From a phage: a stretch of DNA of 64,000 bases. The position numbers and the translations under genes are program-made. Shown piece after piece: positions 19,507 to 58,010 of this stretch. Within the stretch, counting starts at the first letter, position 1, and the number at the start of each line of letters is the position of its first letter. The notes under the pieces were generated by a model. That model saw only the letters and a program-made list of their open reading frames with translations. It was not told where the DNA came from and made no database searches. The stretch is from sequence record PV730302.1, one strand, 5' to 3'.

Positions 19507-19737
19507 TTAATCCTTTGGAGTCAATTCAATAGTGAAGTAGAAATTAGCGTTCTCAACATGATAACGATAATCTACGTTATTATCAGGAGAAGTGAATTCA
19601 ATATTCCTGACGTTAAGTGGGTCAATATCAATAGGAAGGCCTTTAACATCCCGTAATATCAATTTAATAAAATAAGGGAGTGCTTCGAAGTCTTCCATTC
19701 CATCTAAAAGTGGAGTGATATTAATCTGATGTTCCAT
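19507..19737 (-). CDS. hypothetical protein (start uncertain)
   Basis: ORF overlapping the gene 55 3' end; first ATG at 19737, track start is GTG; weak SD. Confidence 0.3.
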
Positions 19738-20278
19738 ATAAAAAATCCAATTCACCAACTTTAGGTTCGGCACTCTTATCAGACCCTGGTGCTTTAGTTA
19801 AAGAGGTTTCATACTGAGTCATTTTGTCGTAGATATCTTGGATAAAGGTTTCATCTGCAATACCTACCATATCGTCATCATTACTGTCATAGACATTATG
19901 GACGAAGTAGCTATATTTCTTTGCCATTTCTTTACGTTCTTTTTTGATACGCTGAACGAAGGCATTAAAACAAGCCATAGTGATATATGCATGTGGGTTG
20001 TCGTATTTTGTTTCGTCGAAATTGTGAAGACCTTTAATCGAAGCTTCGATTCCATCAGCAATCATTTCTTGCTTCCAGGATTGGGTATACCCTGAGAAGT
20101 TGAAACGTTTACTTAGTCCTTCAGCAATGAGCATAATAGCCAAGCCAATAACGTCGTTCTGGCGAACTATTTTATTAGGATCGGTATTTTCTCTGAGCTC
20201 TGTTTTCCATTGGGTAATAGCTTTCAGAAGCTCCTTATTATTTACATAGTTATTTTTAGTCAGTTTAATTTCGGTCAT
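19721..20278 (-). CDS. 55: late-transcription sigma factor gp55
   Basis: 185 aa, near-identical over long stretches to recalled T4 gp55 (NYVNNKELL..., [54 protein letters not shown]). Confidence 0.93.
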
Positions 20279-23326: not shown

Positions 23327-23796
23327 TTAAGCGATTTCCTCAGTTGTTTTTTGAATGAATCCACCATTTGTTTCTTAGTGGCAGATTCATTATAAGTCAT
23401 TCCGTGTGAAAGCATTTCAGCAATCATTTCTTCCTTACCCAACCTGCTGAACTCTTTGGTTTTATCAGGAACGAAATTAGGATGAATATTGTTTTCAGTA
23501 TAATCAGCTTTCAGATAGACCAGCAAATTCTCTAACCATTCGAGGTAGTCAACGTTTTGACCTTTAAGACCAGAACGGTTGAACTTATGCTTCATTTGTC
23601 CTTCTGCAGCATTGCACAGGTTACATAGTAAACCACGAACCTTACCGGCTTTTGGCCCGTTTAACTCGTGGTCGTGGTCAAGGTGGTTACTTTGAACATC
23701 AGGGTTTAATTCACGTTTACAAATCAAACACTTACCACATTGTGCATCATAAAGTTTTTGTTTTTCTTCTTTGTATAATTTGCCGGTCAACAACAT
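23323..23796 (-). CDS. 49: endonuclease VII (Holliday-junction resolvase) gp49
   Basis: 157 aa, about 85-90 percent identical to recalled T4 gp49 including the zinc-binding CxxC motifs and HLDHDHELNGPKAGKVRGLLCNLCN. Confidence 0.95.
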   Translation of the reverse strand: MLLTGKLYKEEKQKLYDAQCGKCLICKRELNPDVQSNHLDHDHELNGPKAGKVRGLLCNLCNAAEGQMKHKFNRSGLKGQNVDYLEWLENLLVYLKADYTENNIHPNFVPDKTKEFSRLGKEEMIAEMLSHGMTYNESATKKQMVDSFKKQLRKSLK

Positions 23797-23801
23797 AATA
23801 A

Positions 23802-23833
23802 ACCCTTACCATTATTAGATAAGGGTATTTATT
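23802..23833 (-). promoter_or_regulatory. gene 49 translational-control hairpin (SD sequestered) with late-promoter-like AATAAATA
   Basis: Minus-strand ACCCTTA-TCTAATAATGG-TAAGGGT, perfect 7-bp stem, 3' arm containing the SD AAGGG 5 nt from the ATG; AATAAATA (7/8 of TATAAATA) just upstream. Confidence 0.5.
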
Positions 23834-23925
23834 AATATCCTAATAGTTTAGCAGTGCAACTTAGCACTAACAACAATCCGAATAAAACAACTCCTACCCA
23901 AAATACCGTAATAAGAGCCTCCATA

Positions 23926-29197: not shown

Positions 29198-29722
29198 TTA
29201 TGCGAGAACCGTCTTTAAACGCTCTTCAAATTTCTGAAGCAGAGCTTGGCGTTCAGCTCGTTGTGATTTGTACTGCTCGATACGACCTGAAGTGAGGGCG
29301 TACTGTTCGTTTACTGATTCCCGCATAAATTCAGGAATCTCTTTACAAGCTTTGATTTCGTCAAACTTATCAATAACAGCTTGTTGTTCAGCAATCAGAT
29401 TATCGAAATAAGCGATATCAGATTTAACGTTTGCCAGGTCAGATTCGGTAGGCATTAAACGTTTGTTACGTTCAGCTTGATAAGCTTGATTGTTTTCACG
29501 ACTCCAGTGAAGAGTACGTTTTTTGTTAGTGTTTTTATAGAGCTCTACAATACCAACTGAATCGATGACTGCAATCCAGTTCCAACGGCTTTTGTAAATC
29601 TCTCCTCCAGATACGGTAATCTCATTACCACAAGCAACGTCGTTAAAGAACTTGCTTTGTTTTTCAGATTTGAAATTACCGTTGTTGAAATTAATCAGTG
29701 AAAAAATATCTTTAGCGTTCAT
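29198..29722 (-). CDS. hypothetical protein (174 aa)
   Basis: ATG 29722 downstream of an early promoter; SD GGAGG. Confidence 0.55.
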   Translation of the reverse strand: MNAKDIFSLINFNNGNFKSEKQSKFFNDVACGNEITVSGGEIYKSRWNWIAVIDSVGIVELYKNTNKKRTLHWSRENNQAYQAERNKRLMPTESDLANVKSDIAYFDNLIAEQQAVIDKFDEIKACKEIPEFMRESVNEQYALTSGRIEQYKSQRAERQALLQKFEERLKTVLA

Positions 29723-29777
29723 GATAACCTCCAGTAGTTGATAGGTCTATAGTATCATTTCTACTGGAGATGTAAAC
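29723..29777 (-). promoter_or_regulatory. early promoter with SD-complementary spacer arm
   Basis: GTTTAC-ATCTCCAGTAGAAATGA-TACTAT-AGACCTATCAACTACTGGAGG; CTCCAGTAG in the spacer pairs with CTACTGGAG in the leader. Confidence 0.6.
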
Positions 29778-29779
29778 AA

Positions 29780-30121
29780 CTAATAGAAACTTTTTTCACC
29801 TGCTTGTCCACTAAACCATGCGGATTGAGTGTTCTCTTTCCGTTGGTGTTCAATACGAATGCGATATTCATTCCTGATGGCGCAGAGTTCATCTCGGAAG
29901 TCGCCTGCCAACTTTACCTGCTTACGGTCTAGATTTATTAAGGCCTGGGTGTTAACGGCCAAGCGCAGTCTCCTGAAGTCTCCTCCACTACACGGATTTT
30001 TATAGAATTTCTCAGAAAACTTAGTACTACATTCATTAATATAGTCTTCAACAGACTGTTTCATAGCTTTGGAAAAAGTCTGACCTGCGTTATAAAGATT
30101 GTAAATAAATTGTTCGAACAT
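29780..30121 (-). CDS. hypothetical protein (113 aa)
   Basis: ORF. Confidence 0.5.
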   Translation of the reverse strand: MFEQFIYNLYNAGQTFSKAMKQSVEDYINECSTKFSEKFYKNPCSGGDFRRLRLAVNTQALINLDRKQVKLAGDFRDELCAIRNEYRIRIEHQRKENTQSAWFSGQAGEKSFY

Positions 30122-37861: not shown

Positions 37862-38320
37862 TTAAAGATAGATTACTTTCGTGCTGGTTTTACCTTCTAA
37901 ACGTTTAGAGTTAACAAATGCCATACGACATTTAAGGGAATATCCTTTATCAGGATGCTTACGGTCTACTGTCATACCCAACCATAAGGTTTTATCGGTA
38001 ATTTCTAGACGCAATGGGCGATACACTTTACCAGGGACAATTTCGGATTCTACATCAGGCAGAGGTTCCTGGATTAAAAATTCATGGATTTCTTTAACAT
38101 GGTTATGGAGTTGCTTGAATAAAGCAAAAACGTATTTTTCGTCGATTTCACGTTGGATAGCACGGTCCAACAAGTGATTAGAGTACTTAATAAAGAAGGC
38201 TGGGACTCCGCTCTTGATGGCGGCTTTTTTGATGGACGTATTCAGTTCACGGAATTCGGTTTCGAACTGACGACGTAATTTATTGCGGCGGATGAATACT
38301 TCTGAATTAATTTCTGACAT
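37862..38320 (-). CDS. regB: endoribonuclease RegB
   Basis: 152 aa; EVFIRRNKLRR and HLLDRAIQREIDE blocks match recalled T4 RegB; leader carries GGAG SD. Confidence 0.8.
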   Translation of the reverse strand: MSEINSEVFIRRNKLRRQFETEFRELNTSIKKAAIKSGVPAFFIKYSNHLLDRAIQREIDEKYVFALFKQLHNHVKEIHEFLIQEPLPDVESEIVPGKVYRPLRLEITDKTLWLGMTVDRKHPDKGYSLKCRMAFVNSKRLEGKTSTKVIYL

Positions 38321-38377
38321 TTTGTAATCTCCTGTAGTTGATAGGTCTATAGTACCACGTCTACAGGAGATGTAAAC
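38321..38377 (-). promoter_or_regulatory. early promoter with SD-complementary spacer arm (regB)
   Basis: GTTTAC-ATCTCCTGTAGACGTGG-TACTAT-AGACCTATCAACTACAGGAGATT; TCTCCTGTAG pairs with CTACAGGAGA. Confidence 0.6.
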
Positions 38378-38381
38378 TGCT

Positions 38382-40399: not shown

Positions 40400-40816
40400 T
40401 TAAGCGTAAATCGCCTTACCATAATGTTTGTACCAGGTAGGGCGTTGTGCAATTTTTTCGTCCAAACGGGCTTGTGAAATGGCGATAGAAGCTTCGTGAG
40501 GAACATAATCATCACGGAATTCCTGAGGAATGTCACTAATGTCCTGGACAGTAGTATCCTTGATATTAAAACCACGTTTTAAACATTCGGCTATAAGCTC
40601 AATTTGTCGCTTACGTAAAAATTCAAGCTTATCGTAAAAGAATGTAACATGGCCTGTGCCAAGGATAAAAGTAGGACTGATTTTGAAATCACGGACACGT
40701 TTACCATTAGCAACATGCTTACGAACTGCACCGAAAACACGTGGTAATTCACGATATTCAGCCATTAAGTGTTGGTCAGCCAATTCAGATACTAAGGTAA
40801 GGTTGATACGAGTCAT
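40400..40816 (-). CDS. denV: endonuclease V (pyrimidine-dimer DNA glycosylase) DenV
   Basis: 138 aa; only a handful of differences from recalled T4 endonuclease V. Confidence 0.95.
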
Positions 40817-40872
40817 TTTTAATCTCCTGTAGTTGATAGGTCTATAGTATCATGACTACAGGAGATGTAAAC
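40817..40872 (-). promoter_or_regulatory. early promoter with SD-complementary spacer arm (denV)
   Basis: GTTTAC-ATCTCCTGTAGTCATGA-TACTAT-AGACCTATCAACTACAGGAGATTAAAAATG; 11-nt perfect inverted repeat TCTCCTGTAGT / ACTACAGGAGA. Confidence 0.6.
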
Positions 40873-40896
40873 AACTTTTATCAAGTATCGGCTTTA

Positions 40897-41493
40897 TTAA
40901 TTACCACGGGCTGCATTAGCAACGGCGTAAGCGTACTGAATATTAGCGTCTTTAAACGTACCTTTAGAGGTATCTATTTCTGCCTTAAAGCCGCCTTTAG
41001 CCATAACATCGGCAAATTCTTTACGGAAAGTCATTGCATCAAGACCTTTCCATGTTGATTTGTGCTTGGCAAATTCAAGACCAGCGAAGTTGACAGCCTT
41101 AGCCAATTTATTATCAATAGTCCATTTACCTGCTTTAGGTACAAACACCGGGCCTTTCTGTTTAGAGAACAGTTTTAAATTCCAGCGACGAAGGTCACCG
41201 TCAGCTTTAACAAAAGCTGCGTCCAAGTTACTAGCAACAACATCTTGGATATGGGCAAATTTAAGTCCATCAGCTTCAATATTTAGGTCGTTACGCCAGC
41301 GAAGTCCTTCCCAGGCGAAAGCTTTAAAGTCGGAAGCTTTTGTAGCCAAGTACCGTTCAATAGGAGCTGTTTTAGCGTCAAAACCGTTTCCTGGGTTGTC
41401 AACGCCGTTTCCTTTGTAAGTCCACTCATCTTTATTAATGCCTTGGACCTTTCCTACAGAAGCTTCGGCGATAAATTCTTTATACGTTTTCAT
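40897..41493 (-). CDS. internal-protein-like capsid cargo (CTS-tagged, 198 aa)
   Basis: N-terminus MKTYKEFIAE; Lys/Ala-rich body. Confidence 0.65.
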   Translation of the reverse strand: MKTYKEFIAEASVGKVQGINKDEWTYKGNGVDNPGNGFDAKTAPIERYLATKASDFKAFAWEGLRWRNDLNIEADGLKFAHIQDVVASNLDAAFVKADGDLRRWNLKLFSKQKGPVFVPKAGKWTIDNKLAKAVNFAGLEFAKHKSTWKGLDAMTFRKEFADVMAKGGFKAEIDTSKGTFKDANIQYAYAVANAARGN

Positions 41494-41575: not shown

Positions 41576-41974
41576 TTATTTGTAGGTCTTCATCCAATTC
41601 TTGAACAAAGCCGCGACGTCTTTCTCTTTAACGTTCAGTTTAATGTCCAACATTTTACCACCGGCAGCACGTGTCTGACGAATCTTAGCAGTACCGGTTT
41701 CGCCATTCCACTCAACATAATACTGCCCAGTGTTCATTGCAATACCATCGCCGTAGTCTTCATTTTTAGAAGTTGTGAAGGCCAGCTTCATAGTCTTAGA
41801 TACACGAGCCTGCATGCCAGTCTGAAGGGCATTACGAACGCGAATAACTTGAGGAGTGGCCTGGGTCAGGTTCTCATTCAGTTCTTCAGTGAACTCTTCA
41901 GATTCAAACATCGCCAAAAGTTCTTTAGATGCAGGAATTACATTCTCTGCGATAAATTCATTATAAGTTTTCAT
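41576..41974 (-). CDS. internal-protein-like capsid cargo (CTS-tagged, 132 aa)
   Basis: N-terminus [10 protein letters not shown]. Confidence 0.65.
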
Positions 41975-42455
41975 ATGCTTTCCAAGTACCTGTTTTAAAT
42001 GTTGAAATCACGCGCTTAGCACGATTAGGAGTTTGTTTATACCAACGGGATTGAGCCAGGTTAACTGCCGCATCGTTCCAACGTTTCTGTTGGAGCATAC
42101 GTAAAGAGTTAGTGAACCCTGCTACGCCTGCTTCACCCATTTGGAAGACCATGTTAATTAAAGCACAACGACGAACTTCGTCCAGTACATCATAAACAGG
42201 TTTCAATTTAGGATTACGCAGAATAGCTCTACGAGCATTTTCAACCGATCGGTTAAAGAGTTGTTCAGCTTCAGCCATAGTAATACGACCATTACAAACT
42301 CGACCCATAAGCTTATCAAGTTCAGCACGAGCAACATCTTTAGAAGGGTTCTTAGTAATCAATTGGCCAATACCAATAGTCCAATAACCTTCAGTGTCTT
42401 TATAAAGATTTAAATCAAGACCTTCGTCTTGACGTAACATATCAAAAATATCCAT
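41961..42455 (-). CDS. e: lysozyme (endolysin) gene e
   Basis: 164 aa, about 80 percent identical to recalled T4 lysozyme; catalytic E11 and D20 conserved. Confidence 0.95.
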
Positions 42456-42480
42456 AATACCTCCTGAGTATAGGAGGTAT
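42456..42480 (-). promoter_or_regulatory. gene e translational-control hairpin sequestering the SD
   Basis: Minus-strand ATACCTCCT-ATACTC-AGGAGGTAT, perfect 9-bp stem, with AGGAGG 4 nt upstream of the ATG. Confidence 0.55.
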
Positions 42481-42485
42481 TTATA

Positions 42486-42935
42486 TCAAAAGAGCGAATC
42501 TAAAACCTTAAACATCGACGGGCCCATGACATATTCCCATTGCGGACGTTTAATCAAAGCGAACGCATCGAATTCAGGAATAGTACGACCATCAGGGAAC
42601 GTATGGTAAGCCGTACATTTGCAATCCTTGAACTGCTCGTGTTCCACAGGCACTGTATATAAGAACAGATGTAGATTCTTATTGCTTGAATATTTGAACT
42701 CACCCAGGTCTTTCAGGAATGCAGGATCGTATGCTGTGAATCCAATCTCTTCTTCGGTTTCGCGCATTGCCGCTTGAATAGGCTCTTCGCCTGGTTCGAC
42801 ATGGCCTTTAGGAATGTCCCATTTATGACGCATGTTCTCTGGATTACGAGAGCCTGTTACACGACCCATGACCAGTTCTTTATCAACGGTCATGAACAAA
42901 ATACCTGCCGATAATTCCTTAGCTTTCTTACCCAT
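42486..42935 (-). CDS. nudE: Nudix hydrolase NudE-like
   Basis: Nudix box GHVEPGEEPIQAAMRETEEEIG; start at ATG 42935; track N-terminal extension rejected. Confidence 0.8.
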   Translation of the reverse strand: MGKKAKELSAGILFMTVDKELVMGRVTGSRNPENMRHKWDIPKGHVEPGEEPIQAAMRETEEEIGFTAYDPAFLKDLGEFKYSSNKNLHLFLYTVPVEHEQFKDCKCTAYHTFPDGRTIPEFDAFALIKRPQWEYVMGPSMFKVLDSLF

Positions 42936-43164: not shown

Positions 43165-43748
43165 TTACGGCATTCCTTAATAAAAGAGTTTAATGTATTT
43201 TTCTTAGTGATATCGTCATATACCTTTTTAACTTTAGAAATACGAAAAGGTACTTCGATAACAGAGGTCCATAAAAATGATGCGATAAGACCCAAGATAG
43301 CAGCAGACATCGCTGAAGCGAATACACAAATAGGCAGGTCATTATCTGTTGTCAGGAAAAACCATAGGAGTGGGAAAAATAATATACCCATCCAAACATA
43401 GAATCTAGAACTCACCAATTTGTCGTATTCATCACTCCATGCACGGAAGCCGTATTTTTTGCTATAACAAATCAATGGGTCTGGAGTCTGTTCTTTATGT
43501 GGTTCCGCTTGCCAGCCGTTTACGATATAGCCCATTTTATATTCCTCAATTAAAAGCTGTTTCATTTCGGCAGTACAACCTGACCAATCTATTGTACTGG
43601 CTGAAATTCCTTCATCACCGTCATCGATATTTCGCCAGGACTTTTTAATAATCATAGTCTCACCACTTGGGATAATAATTCCAGCATTTTCCGACCGACG
43701 GATGAAGTTTGTATCAATACCCATACAACCAGGTTCATAAAGGGCCAT
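43161..43748 (-). CDS. membrane protein (195 aa)
   Basis: Soluble N-terminal domain plus C-terminal TM helices; C-terminus FIKECRK. Confidence 0.5.
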   Translation of the reverse strand: MALYEPGCMGIDTNFIRRSENAGIIIPSGETMIIKKSWRNIDDGDEGISASTIDWSGCTAEMKQLLIEEYKMGYIVNGWQAEPHKEQTPDPLICYSKKYGFRAWSDEYDKLVSSRFYVWMGILFFPLLWFFLTTDNDLPICVFASAMSAAILGLIASFLWTSVIEVPFRISKVKKVYDDITKKNTLNSFIKECRK

Positions 43749-44437
43749 TACCAGCCCTCCATAGGGAATTCCAGATATACTTGAGCATTAACGCGGATTT
43801 CATTTGTAATCTTTTTAACACGGTCTGTATTACGAGACACACGACCAAACCAGCGCCACCCATTACTTACTGCACGAGAACCTGTATGCCATGTCTGCCA
43901 ATCAAACTGGAGCAACGTGCGGTCAGGAGCATCCCACTTGGTTAATTCATTGGACTCAATTTTTTCCAGAACTTCTTTATGCCACTGGCGATAGATAAGT
44001 TCGCCTTCAGGAATCTGACTGAACTGTGCAGTTCCGGTTGCAAAATGAGTAGGACACACATCAGCATTAACAAGACCAAGAATATGTTCAGAATGGTATC
44101 GAGGATTATCATAATCAGGTTGCCCTGCGGTAATAAAGTGTTGACCCACCGGAATATCCGGGCGTGGTACATCATCATGGTGGAAGCCTGGAATTGCAGG
44201 GTACCAGCCAGGCATTAACATGTGTACACGGGAATCAAATACAATATCAGGGCCACATTGCCAATCTTCAGGCAGGTTTTCAATAAAGCTACGAGTAATA
44301 GGACCACCGTGTTTATGAGCAAAATAAGCATCGCAATTAAAGAACATAGGCTCATTTTTAATCATATCATTACTGATATCTTGAGCAAAACCACCGACTG
44401 CACGAGCTTGAGAATTAAAAGTTTTCGGGCCGTTCAT
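43748..44437 (-). CDS. hypothetical His-rich protein (229 aa), possible metal-dependent enzyme
   Basis: HMLMPGWYPAIPGFHHDD and PTHFATG histidine clusters; no firm fold assignment. Confidence 0.5.
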   Translation of the reverse strand: MNGPKTFNSQARAVGGFAQDISNDMIKNEPMFFNCDAYFAHKHGGPITRSFIENLPEDWQCGPDIVFDSRVHMLMPGWYPAIPGFHHDDVPRPDIPVGQHFITAGQPDYDNPRYHSEHILGLVNADVCPTHFATGTAQFSQIPEGELIYRQWHKEVLEKIESNELTKWDAPDRTLLQFDWQTWHTGSRAVSNGWRWFGRVSRNTDRVKKITNEIRVNAQVYLEFPMEGW

Positions 44438-44664: not shown

Positions 44665-44729
44665 TTTATTCTCCATTTCACTCTGTTGTTTTGATAGGTC
44701 TATAGTATCACACCTATAGACCTTGTACA
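44665..44729 (-). promoter_or_regulatory. early-promoter-like element (GTGTAC -35 variant, TACTAT -10)
   Basis: Minus-strand GTGTACAAGGTCTATAGGTGTGATACTATAGACCTATCAA; inverted repeat AGGTCTATAG / CTATAGACCT spans the -10. Confidence 0.45.
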
Positions 44730-44742
44730 CTGTTTTGTGTAA

Positions 44743-47805: not shown

Positions 47806-48155
47806 GATTTACATTCCTTAATAAAGGTTTCAAGGTCATTACGTTTAGTTTGTTTTACATACTCATTATAATTAGCCATAGCTAAAGCATATCTCTTTTT
47901 ACGTGGCTTGTTTATTTTATTAGTTTGGGCAATATCAAAGACCCATGGGATAAAAAATCCTATTAAAGCCGGAACCCAAATCCATGCAAGGCTCATATCT
48001 TCAAACGGATGGCGAGGCATACCATTAATAATCCCACCGACAAGAAATCCAATTATCCCTGCAGTCATACTAGTAGCAATGCCGAGGAATAAGGAAATAG
48101 CTATATCATAATCTGCTAATGCGTAACCAGGGTCGGTTTTACTAGGCTTATGCAT
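47802..48155 (-). CDS. membrane protein (117 aa)
   Basis: Start at ATG 48155 with AGAGG SD; two TM helices; C-terminus FIKECKS. Confidence 0.5.
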   Translation of the reverse strand: MHKPSKTDPGYALADYDIAISLFLGIATSMTAGIIGFLVGGIINGMPRHPFEDMSLAWIWVPALIGFFIPWVFDIAQTNKINKPRKKRYALAMANYNEYVKQTKRNDLETFIKECKS

Positions 48156-53187: not shown

Positions 53188-53245
53188 TTTATTCTCCTCA
53201 GTAGTTGATAGGGTAATAGTATCACTACCCTATCTAAAAGTAAAC
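53188..53245 (-). promoter_or_regulatory. early promoter (GTTTAC-18-TACTAT)
   Basis: Minus-strand GTTTACTTTTAGATAGGGTAGTGATACTATTACCCTATCAACTAC. Confidence 0.55.
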
Positions 53246-53898: not shown

Positions 53899-53964
53899 TT
53901 TGATTTCCGTGCGGTTAGTTTGTTTTGATAGGTCTATAGTATCATGCCTATAGACCTTGTAAAC
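53899..53964 (-). promoter_or_regulatory. early promoter (GTTTAC -35, TACTAT -10)
   Basis: Minus-strand GTTTACAAGGTCTATAGGCATGATACTATAGACCTATCAAAAC. Confidence 0.55.
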
Positions 53965-56915: not shown

Positions 56916-57361
56916 CCTTTCCATCCTAATTTTTTCAGTGAATGTTCGGTAATCAATCTAAAGGTGATACCCATTTTATCTGCTGTAGCTTTAGCTGCTT
57001 TCCACTTATCAGTATTAACAGACCAAGTATAGTGTTCGTTGATATATCTCTTTTTAGCAGCCGTAGTCATTTTAACAGGCACCGCAGGAGCATGGGTTTC
57101 TTTAAAAGGTTTGACTTCAAAAAAGAATTGTTGGCCCGTATCAAATTTAACCCAGAAGTCCATAAAATATCGTCTTTTCTTTCCTTCGGCATTGCAAAAG
57201 TAAGGAATGACCACCTCTTCTGAATTCCACTGGACTACATTAGGATGGTTGTCAAGCCAACGCATAAACCATGCTTCCCAAGAGGAACGATATTGGATTT
57301 TCTTCCAGTCACCTTTATATTTTTGTAAGTTTGTAGGTTTAAATTTCCCTGAGTAAGCCAT
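56912..57361 (-). CDS. 4: head completion protein gp4
   Basis: Start at ATG 57361 (MAYSGKF, matching T4 gp4) with AAGGAGG SD and an upstream late-promoter motif. Confidence 0.8.
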
Positions 57362-57372
57362 AGTTGCCTCCT

Positions 57373-57380
57373 TATAAATA
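57373..57380 (+). promoter_or_regulatory. late promoter TATAAATA for gene 53
   Basis: Exact TATAAATA on the plus strand 28 nt upstream of the gene 53 ATG; divergent from the gene 4 promoter. Confidence 0.65.
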
Positions 57381-57387
57381 TTAATAT

Positions 57388-57395
57388 TATTTATA
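57388..57395 (-). promoter_or_regulatory. late promoter TATAAATA for gene 4
   Basis: Exact TATAAATA on the minus strand 27 nt upstream of the gene 4 ATG. Confidence 0.65.
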
Positions 57396-57407
57396 CTCGG
57401 AGGCCCT

Positions 57408-58010
57408 ATGCTCTTCTCATTTTTCGATCCCATCGATTACGAATCAAAAACAGTCAAGCCGGATTCGGGCTCATTAACAAATGCCGATGTACTGAGCGTG
57501 CCGATGACTGATATATTTAGAAATTATAAAGAATATTTTGATAAAGTGGCTAAAAACTATACACTAAAGACTTATTATATCAACGGGGCCCCTCGTCCAG
57601 AAGAATTGGCCAATCAACTTTACGGTAACGTTCAGTTATACTGGGTTTTATTGATGTGCAATAACGTATATGACCCATATTACGGCTGGATTACAGGCCA
57701 AGAAGTCGCATATCAAGCAGCAATCCAAAGATATTCTACTGCAGGTGGCAATCAAGTTCTTTATCATGTTAATGAAAAGGGTGAGAAATTCTGGAATCTT
57801 GTTAATACTCCAGAAAACCCATATACTTGGTATGATAAAGGTGATACAGAAAAACGTTATCCTCAATATGAGGGCCCTTTGGCTGCAGTAGATATTTACG
57901 AGGATGCTATTCGTAAAAATGAATATAAGCGCGAAATAAAGATTGTAGACCCTAATGATATTGAGTCCTTTATTTCTGCCCTTATTCGCGAAATGGAGAA
58001 AGCCCTCTAA
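57408..58010 (+). CDS. 53: baseplate wedge protein gp53
   Basis: 200 aa; SD GGAGG; T4 gene order 4|53-5 with divergent late promoters. Confidence 0.85.
   Translation: MLFSFFDPIDYESKTVKPDSGSLTNADVLSVPMTDIFRNYKEYFDKVAKNYTLKTYYINGAPRPEELANQLYGNVQLYWVLLMCNNVYDPYYGWITGQEVAYQAAIQRYSTAGGNQVLYHVNEKGEKFWNLVNTPENPYTWYDKGDTEKRYPQYEGPLAAVDIYEDAIRKNEYKREIKIVDPNDIESFISALIREMEKAL

Follow-up and report, generated by a model that had tools for sequence, protein, structure and literature searches.

A T4-type leader of the lysozyme gene e in a T-even phage genome, with a hairpin over the Shine-Dalgarno sequence and an embedded late promoter

In phage T4, transcripts that reach the lysozyme gene e from upstream form an inhibitory structure that lowers lysozyme synthesis about 100-fold, according to those parts of a review (PMC3014915) that summarize McPheeters et al. 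1986. The same parts state that transcripts from the late promoter are without the 5' strand of the e hairpin (PMC3014915) and place the demonstrated effect at ribosome binding (McPheeters et al. 1986, NAR 14:5813, via PMC3014915). Similar e leaders, with a late promoter in the 5' strand, have been predicted in related phages (Uzan and Miller 2010 review, PMC3014915), and phages Aeh1, 44RR, 25, 31 and FelixO1 are reported without an e hairpin (PMC3014915). The leaders of T4 genes 49, soc and I-TevI likewise hide the Shine-Dalgarno sequence (SD) or AUG in read-through RNA and free it by means of an internal late promoter (PMC3014915), but they belong to other genes, have other sequences and are non-homologous to the e leader. 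A compact intergenic arrangement of promoter, stem-loop, SD and start codon, in which the stem often overlaps the promoter, is also shared with the PeSL elements (PMC2839356, PMC4122927); these carry sigma-70-type -35/-10 promoters and have been read as terminators and recombination sites, whereas the promoter of the e leader is a late one of the gp55 type, and a -35/-10 pair is lacking there. Riboswitches and RNA thermometers with SD-occluding platforms similarly control translation by pairing of an anti-SD with the SD, but the e leader senses neither ligand nor temperature, and its two states are two transcripts with alternative starts.

Here we compare with these systems the e leader found in a stretch of 64,000 nucleotides of phage DNA (PV730302.1), hereafter the window. 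The region shares 98.7% identity with Escherichia phages QL01 and E33 and 94-98% with WG01, Bp7 and IME08, of which IME08 is classified in the Tevenvirinae, genus Dhakavirus; the genome that hosts this e leader is that of a JS98/Bp7-like T-even phage. An earlier note made from the letters alone had called the gene a lysozyme gene e, and the call is borne out by agreement between Pfam (PF00959 Phage_lysozyme, E=1e-12), PHROG (endolysin) and the identity of the product to T4 e (75.6% by tblastn); identity to the product of phage WG01 is 100%. The order nudE-e is common to the window, T4, IME08 and other genera. Because the nudE stop codon (UGA, 42488-42486) is separated from the stem by only 4 nt and the nudE-e intergenic gap is 30 nt, the entire gap consists of promoter and hairpin (Table 1). 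A ribosome terminating at the nudE stop might partly melt the stem and permit some coupling.

Table 1. Features of the gene e leader, its neighbours and candidate regulators in the window
Feature	Coordinates	Strand	Basis or remark
gene e, T4-type lysozyme, 164 aa	41961..42455	-	Pfam, PHROG, tblastn
3' arm of hairpin, AGGAGGUAUU	42456..42465	-	adjoins AUG at 42455
Shine-Dalgarno AGGAGG(U), whole SD inside 3' arm	42465-42459	-	
loop, AUACUC	42466..42471	-	sequence
5' arm of hairpin, AAUACCUCCU, holds anti-SD CCUCCU	42472..42481	-	sequence, folding, stem census
predicted late start +1, U42472 or, with 1 base of slack, A42471	42471..42472	-	extrapolated from T4 consensus
late promoter core TATAAATA, gp55-type	42478..42485	-	exact T4 late-promoter 8-mer consensus
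nudE, NUDIX hydrolase, upstream early-region gene	42486..42935	-	Pfam NUDIX, PHROG nudix hydrolase E=3e-71
candidate early-type promoter GTGTACA-N16-TACTAT, in repeated GATACTATAGACCT motif	44702..44730	-	weak sigma-70 match, 8/12
candidate MotA-type middle promoter TGCTTTA-N12-TATAAT, nearest upstream of e on the same strand	47865..47889	-	motif
gene 55, late sigma factor recognising TATAAATA, in trans	19733..20278	-	PHROG_234 'late sigma transcription factor', E=1.1e-68

Read from 42480 to 42453, the minus strand is ATACCTCCT-ATACTC-AGGAGGTAT-T-ATG, and the wider stretch from 42490 to 42450 is TTTGA-TATAAATA-CCTCCT-ATACTC-AGGAGGTATT-ATGGAT. The hairpin that the earlier note described is therefore present on the minus strand as given, with one refinement: the pair A42481-U42456 extends its 9-bp stem to 10 bp (42481-42456), all of them Watson-Crick and without a mismatch, closed by a loop of 6 nt. 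That AGGAGG lies wholly within the 3' arm, as had been claimed, agrees with the sequence. The distance of 4 nt to the ATG is right when taken as the spacing between AGGAGG and AUG (UAUU), and wrong as the distance between arm and AUG, which is 0-1 nt. An Rfam covariance-model search of 42200-42800 on both strands gave zero matches at E<=1. The locus was also considered as a PeSL cassette and rejected as such, since no -35/-10 pair was called in 42456-42520 (minus strand) and the PeSL-type motif GATACTATAG is absent there.

The hairpin and the late promoter are physically merged, in that the final 4 nt of TATAAATA are the opening 4 nt of the 5' arm. On this side of the hairpin the earlier note had placed a stretch containing TATAAT; the literal hexamer is absent, and the motif is instead TATAAATA, of the gp55 type, with no sigma-70 box. 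The T4 late consensus spans positions -13 to -6 relative to the start (PMC1524935). Placed in the same way, TATAAATA has its -6 position at 42478, so that +1 would fall at 42472, the last base of the 5' arm, or at 42471, the first base of the loop, and the late mRNA would therefore be without the 5' arm. The RNA predicted from these starts keeps 0-1 nt of the arm and has a 5' UTR of about 16-17 nt. As judged from the sequence, the late promoter thus appears to start transcription after the 5' arm, as it does in a T4-type e leader.

Since the raw number of TATAAATA copies in the 64-kb window is not enriched (4 observed against 6.6 expected), the promoter call rests on position, on depletion of the core elsewhere and on conservation. 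Across the window the ATAAATA core occurs about 3-fold less often than expected (8 copies, where 26 +/- 5 are expected, with 100 of 100 shuffles reaching at least 8), and the copy of TATAAATA at e is for this reason unlikely to be incidental; the depletion suggests selection against stray late promoters in a region that is mostly early or middle. None of the remaining late-promoter cores of the window is followed by CCUCC, and we conclude from this absence that the anti-SD CCUCC is not a part of the promoter. The sigma factor that would act on the promoter in trans is encoded in the same window by gene 55, whose open reading frame was found with a probe that we take to be the T4 gp55 sequence.

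Direct alignment makes the T4 leader, TATAAATACCTTCTATAAATACTTAGGAGGTATTATG, visibly homologous to the window leader, TATAAATACCTCCTATACTCAGGAGGTATTATG. Common to the two are gene e itself, nudE/e.1 upstream, the identical 3' arm AGGAGGUAUU adjoining the AUG, and a copy of TATAAATA running into the base of the 5' arm, with the long RNA closed and the late RNA open. T4 reads TATAAATA-CCTTC-TATAAATA-CTT-AGGAGGTATT-ATG. The 5' arms differ by one base, where the window has a C-G pair and T4 a U.G pair, and the window stem is thus Watson-Crick throughout. The T4 loop has 10 nt and contains a second TATAAATA, whereas the window loop is 4 nt shorter; T4 therefore has two late promoters and the window one, the second having been lost. 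The nudE stop lies 4 nt from the stem in the window and 7 nt in T4. In a blastn search the 65-nt leader matched 711 phage records: it is 100% identical in IME08 and Bp7, 34 records reach at least 99% identity, T4T stands at about 80%, and more than 640 further T-even records lie at 80-90%. The suggestion that this is the regulatory design of T4 lysozyme has accordingly held up, as the T4 leader is homologous and the published account gives the same mechanism (PMC3014915). With all of the sequence-level features of that leader present, we identify the window element, on this evidence, as an orthologous copy of the T4 gene e translational-control leader; its differences from T4 are minor variations, and that it is functional in the window phage is something we infer strongly.

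Folding calculations support a difference in access to the SD between read-through and late RNA. In read-through RNA the probability that the SD is unpaired is 0.013 with any of three lengths of upstream context (65, 145 or 245 nt), and it is 0.23-0.25 in the predicted late RNA, in which the SD remains partly paired because of weak pairing to the first codons. The energy needed to open the e SD is 10.8 kcal/mol in the read-through RNA versus 3.6 in the late RNA. For 70 plausible gene starts taken from the window the median cost is 2.9 kcal/mol, and the e leader belongs to a separate top class of 8 of these 70 starts, in which opening the SD costs more than 10.7 kcal/mol.

We consider it very probable that a T4-type e leader, with hiding of the SD decided by the transcription start site, explains the window element. 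Early and middle transcripts would originate well upstream of e and reach it by way of nudE. Such read-through RNA would have both arms of the hairpin, so that the SD would be buried, the 30S subunit would not bind and no lysozyme would be made prematurely. At late times, RNA polymerase with gp55 would initiate at TATAAATA, whose end lies in the base of the 5' arm, and transcription would begin at about U42472/A42471, past that arm. The resulting mRNA would be without the hairpin and its SD about as accessible as that of an average gene, permitting lysozyme to be translated. The switch would thus be set by the choice of transcription start, without ligand or protein. For the window phage we infer the 5' ends, the read-through transcripts and the size of the translational effect.

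Candidate sources of upstream transcription can be named. The early-type promoter-like site at 44702..44730 is, from its sequence, a possible source of early read-through transcripts; sigma-70-like sites are no commoner in the window than in shuffles. A MotA-type middle promoter candidate lies further upstream (Table 1), and the MotA-box pattern is about 4-fold enriched in the window (13 copies, a number attained by none of 100 shuffles, where 3.1 +/- 1.9 are expected), with 10 of the 13 on the minus strand, which is that of e. A scan of the minus strand from the candidate upstream promoters to e predicted no terminator-like site.

The pairing of the SD could also bear on the fate of the RNA, for the nuclease RegB cleaves GGAG in early mRNAs (PMC3014915), the e SD contains GGAG, and regB is annotated in IME08 about 3 kb downstream of e. 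A hairpin that serves mainly in RNA stability or processing, either by shielding the GGAG from RegB or as a nuclease entry site, is nevertheless very unlikely in our estimation: the effect in T4 was demonstrated at ribosome binding, as far as the review's account of McPheeters et al. 1986 extends (PMC3014915). Such a role is moreover compatible with translational occlusion and does not exclude it, and RegB protection or RNA stability is possible as an additional role of the element.

Termination offers another use for a stem at this place. PeSL stem-loops of T4-type phages have been shown to be terminators or attenuators (PMC2839356), and in a few GenBank records of related, Mosigvirus-like phages (ATK47, KT184309.1; KAW3E185, MK373782.1) the counterpart of the e hairpin is annotated as 'terminator'. 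By analogy, the hairpin might mainly end early transcription after nudE. An intrinsic terminator has a GC-rich stem followed by a U-tract, but here the bases after the stem are AUGGAUAU, with no such tract, and the terminator scan made no call; early transcripts of T4, moreover, reportedly run on into e (PMC3014915). What is constant across genera is also the pairing of the SD, not a GC-rich stem plus T-run. We therefore give a terminator or attenuator as the main function only a slight chance of being correct.

For a comparison among phages, e leaders were collected from 14 phages with annotation and from 35 IMG/VR contigs. The T-even phages among them (lysozyme identity 63-99%) yield 16 distinct leaders, and each of these forms a helix of 7-14 bp whose 3' arm includes the SD core; each also carries an [A/C/T]TAAATA core, either at the 5' arm or within it. 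Their sources are Tequatro-, Dhaka-, Gapriver-, Mosig-, Kanagawa-, Marfa-, Winkler- and Jiaodavirus, one Erwinia phage and Ci1-like phages, or about ten genera. The stem sequences differ, one group extending towards the AUG (AAUACC.../...GGUAUU) and another towards the loop (CUCCUAUC/GAUAGGAG or ACUCCUAUAU/GUAUAGGAGU). In SP18 both arms have changed in concert, CCCC/GGGG replacing CUCC/GGAG, and in the Ci1-like phages a 14-bp stem encloses CTAAATA. Differences between U.G and C-G pairs arose independently in two lineages, namely between T4 and the window and between CIP9 and L022. Each of the 16 leaders beats its shuffles, of which 2-81 in 2000 reach the observed helix.

Upstream of the AUG, a MAFFT alignment leaves only the ATAAATA core and GGAG as conserved blocks; of the 17 aligned T-even leaders, 15 have the core almost unchanged, and the sequence upstream of it is not conserved. 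In this alignment the 5' arms of the two groups of leaders are displaced by one column relative to each other. As the register of the helix truly differs between genera and one consensus structure for all would have given wrong counts, conservation was scored by finding the helix in each sequence separately, with shuffle controls, rather than by covariation in the alignment. Among the leaders extracted from e homologues of Stephanstirmvirinae and Aeromonas phages, the hairpin was not found, in agreement with what the review reports for Aeh1, 44RR and others (PMC3014915).

For the window leader taken singly, the 61-nt region folds into the e hairpin with a minimum free energy of -14.1 kcal/mol (z=-2.56; 5 of 200 shuffles are equally stable), shuffling the upstream bases produces a helix of equal length over the e SD 18 times in 2000, and by our census only 6 loci of the 64-kb window carry a perfect stem of at least 9 bp whose loop has 3-10 nt. 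The e hairpin is beyond chance. The notion that the inverted repeat is a functionless by-product of packing two AT-rich or purine-rich signals, a late promoter and an SD, into so short a gap, to which the 30 nt available and the moderate single-sequence z lend some colour, is the least credible of the alternatives and is excluded because the pairing is conserved through different sequences (in 16 of 16 leaders, across differing registers and loops and including the change from CUCC/GGAG to CCCC/GGGG), quite apart from the rarity of such stems and from an anti-SD CCUCCU that neither promoter nor SD needs and that the window's other late-promoter cores lack.

More distant lysozyme homologues (40-46% identity) on three IMG/VR contigs of 17-35 kb, L047 and L048 (roughly -45 to -5, counted from an ATG at 601) as well as L049 (roughly -50 to -12), have CCTC-ATAAATA upstream and the complementary TATTTAT-AAGAGG or ATATTTAATGAGG right before the start codon. 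These contigs possibly hold an anti-SD together with a late-promoter-like core in a putative 5' arm.

Downstream of e on the minus strand lie two open reading frames, 41576-41974 and 40897-41493, that both start with MKTY(N/K)EFIAE, as do T4 internal head proteins. The second matches the PHROG 'internal virion protein' (E=3e-115), and the first shares a 14-nt overlap with the end of e. Because no exact TATAAATA intervenes between the e promoter and these two frames, the e late promoter may serve both of them too. An early-type promoter-like site, GTTTACA…GATAGTATAT, is located at 41574-41547, ahead of the frame at 40897-41493.

Besides e, the top class of starts with a costly SD holds gene 49, genes 4 and 53, denV, the ATGs at 38320 and 29722 and an e.2-like start at 43748; apart from the last, their hairpins are arranged on a principle like that of e. 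Gene 49, which encodes endonuclease VII (PHROG_423, E=3e-59) and has its ATG at 23796, is preceded by a leader (23796-23840, minus strand) in which opening the SD costs 11.3 kcal/mol; the core AATAAATA (23826-23832) lies in the 5' arm of an SD-covering hairpin, …AAUACCCUUA…UAAGGGUUUAUU-AUG, and gene 49 is a known T4 case of the late-promoter and hairpin design (PMC3014915). A palindromic gap of 46 nt (57361-57408, both strands) lies between two divergent genes, gene 4 for head closure on the minus strand and gene 53 for the baseplate wedge on the plus strand, and holds facing late promoters, TATAAATA at 57373-57380 (plus) and 57388-57395 (minus), and ATGs at 57361 and 57408. Each SD (GGAGG) there complements the anti-SD of the other gene, with opening energies of 13.2 and 13.6 kcal/mol, and over 900 phage records share this conserved region.

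A third arrangement is found at denV (ATG 40816) and at the ATGs at 38320 and 29722, which begin frames of 152 and 174 aa other than denV. These three starts have in common a cassette of about 55 nt, GTTTACA-TCTCCTGTAG-N4-GATACTATAGACCTATCAA-CTACAGGAGA-N-ATG (40816-40876, 38320-38381 and 29722-29781, minus strand), in which the anti-SD 5' arm sits in the spacer of an early-type -35/-10 promoter and the 3' arm is the SD, with opening energies of 11.2-15.6 kcal/mol. An almost identical cassette stands upstream of denV in T4. The cassettes resemble the published PeSL elements, in which the stems are read as terminators and SD sequestration is unmentioned (PMC2839356, PMC4122927).

Still other hairpins in the window involve promoters or starts in different ways. 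A perfect 10-bp hairpin, AGGTCTATAG-N8-CTATAGACCT, occurs in two copies (44696-44723 and 53930-53957; also 53207-53234) and pairs the spacer of an early-type promoter with the promoter's own -10/start region (GATACTATAGACCT). The motif GATACTATAG is enriched, at 13 sites with at most one mismatch against 4.2 expected, and all 7 of its exact copies are on the minus strand; taken as a whole, perfect short hairpins number 10 in the window, more than the 3.2 +/- 2.0 obtained by Markov simulation. At the start of an e.2-like membrane protein (43748, minus strand), folding predicts that the gene's own first codons (GGAGGGCUGGUAAUGGCCCUUU) pair with the SD and the AUG, with an opening energy of 11.5 kcal/mol. 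This start overlaps the stop of the upstream frame (43748-44437), which suggests translational coupling and not promoter-dependent control.

It is tempting to see in the e leader one instance of a general design in this genome, in which most of the 8 starts with a costly SD have the anti-SD arm within their own promoter. We put this forward tentatively, as a generalization that is rather unlikely to hold. If it were true, PeSL-like stem-loops would also be translational insulators, each gene being translatable only from its own promoter.

For gene e itself our finding is mostly confirmatory and raises no new question, as the mechanism is already known, with a literature that goes back to 1986 and conservation among T4-type phages noted in 2010. 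It does bear on annotation: public records label the homologous site inconsistently, as 'terminator' in some Mosigvirus-like records such as those named above and as 'promoter' in Yersinia phage fPS-2 (LR215722.1), and the proper label for the e hairpin is that of a translational control element containing a late promoter, rather than a terminator. The design has been kept in about ten genera whose stems differ, which argues that delayed lysozyme translation is under strong selection.
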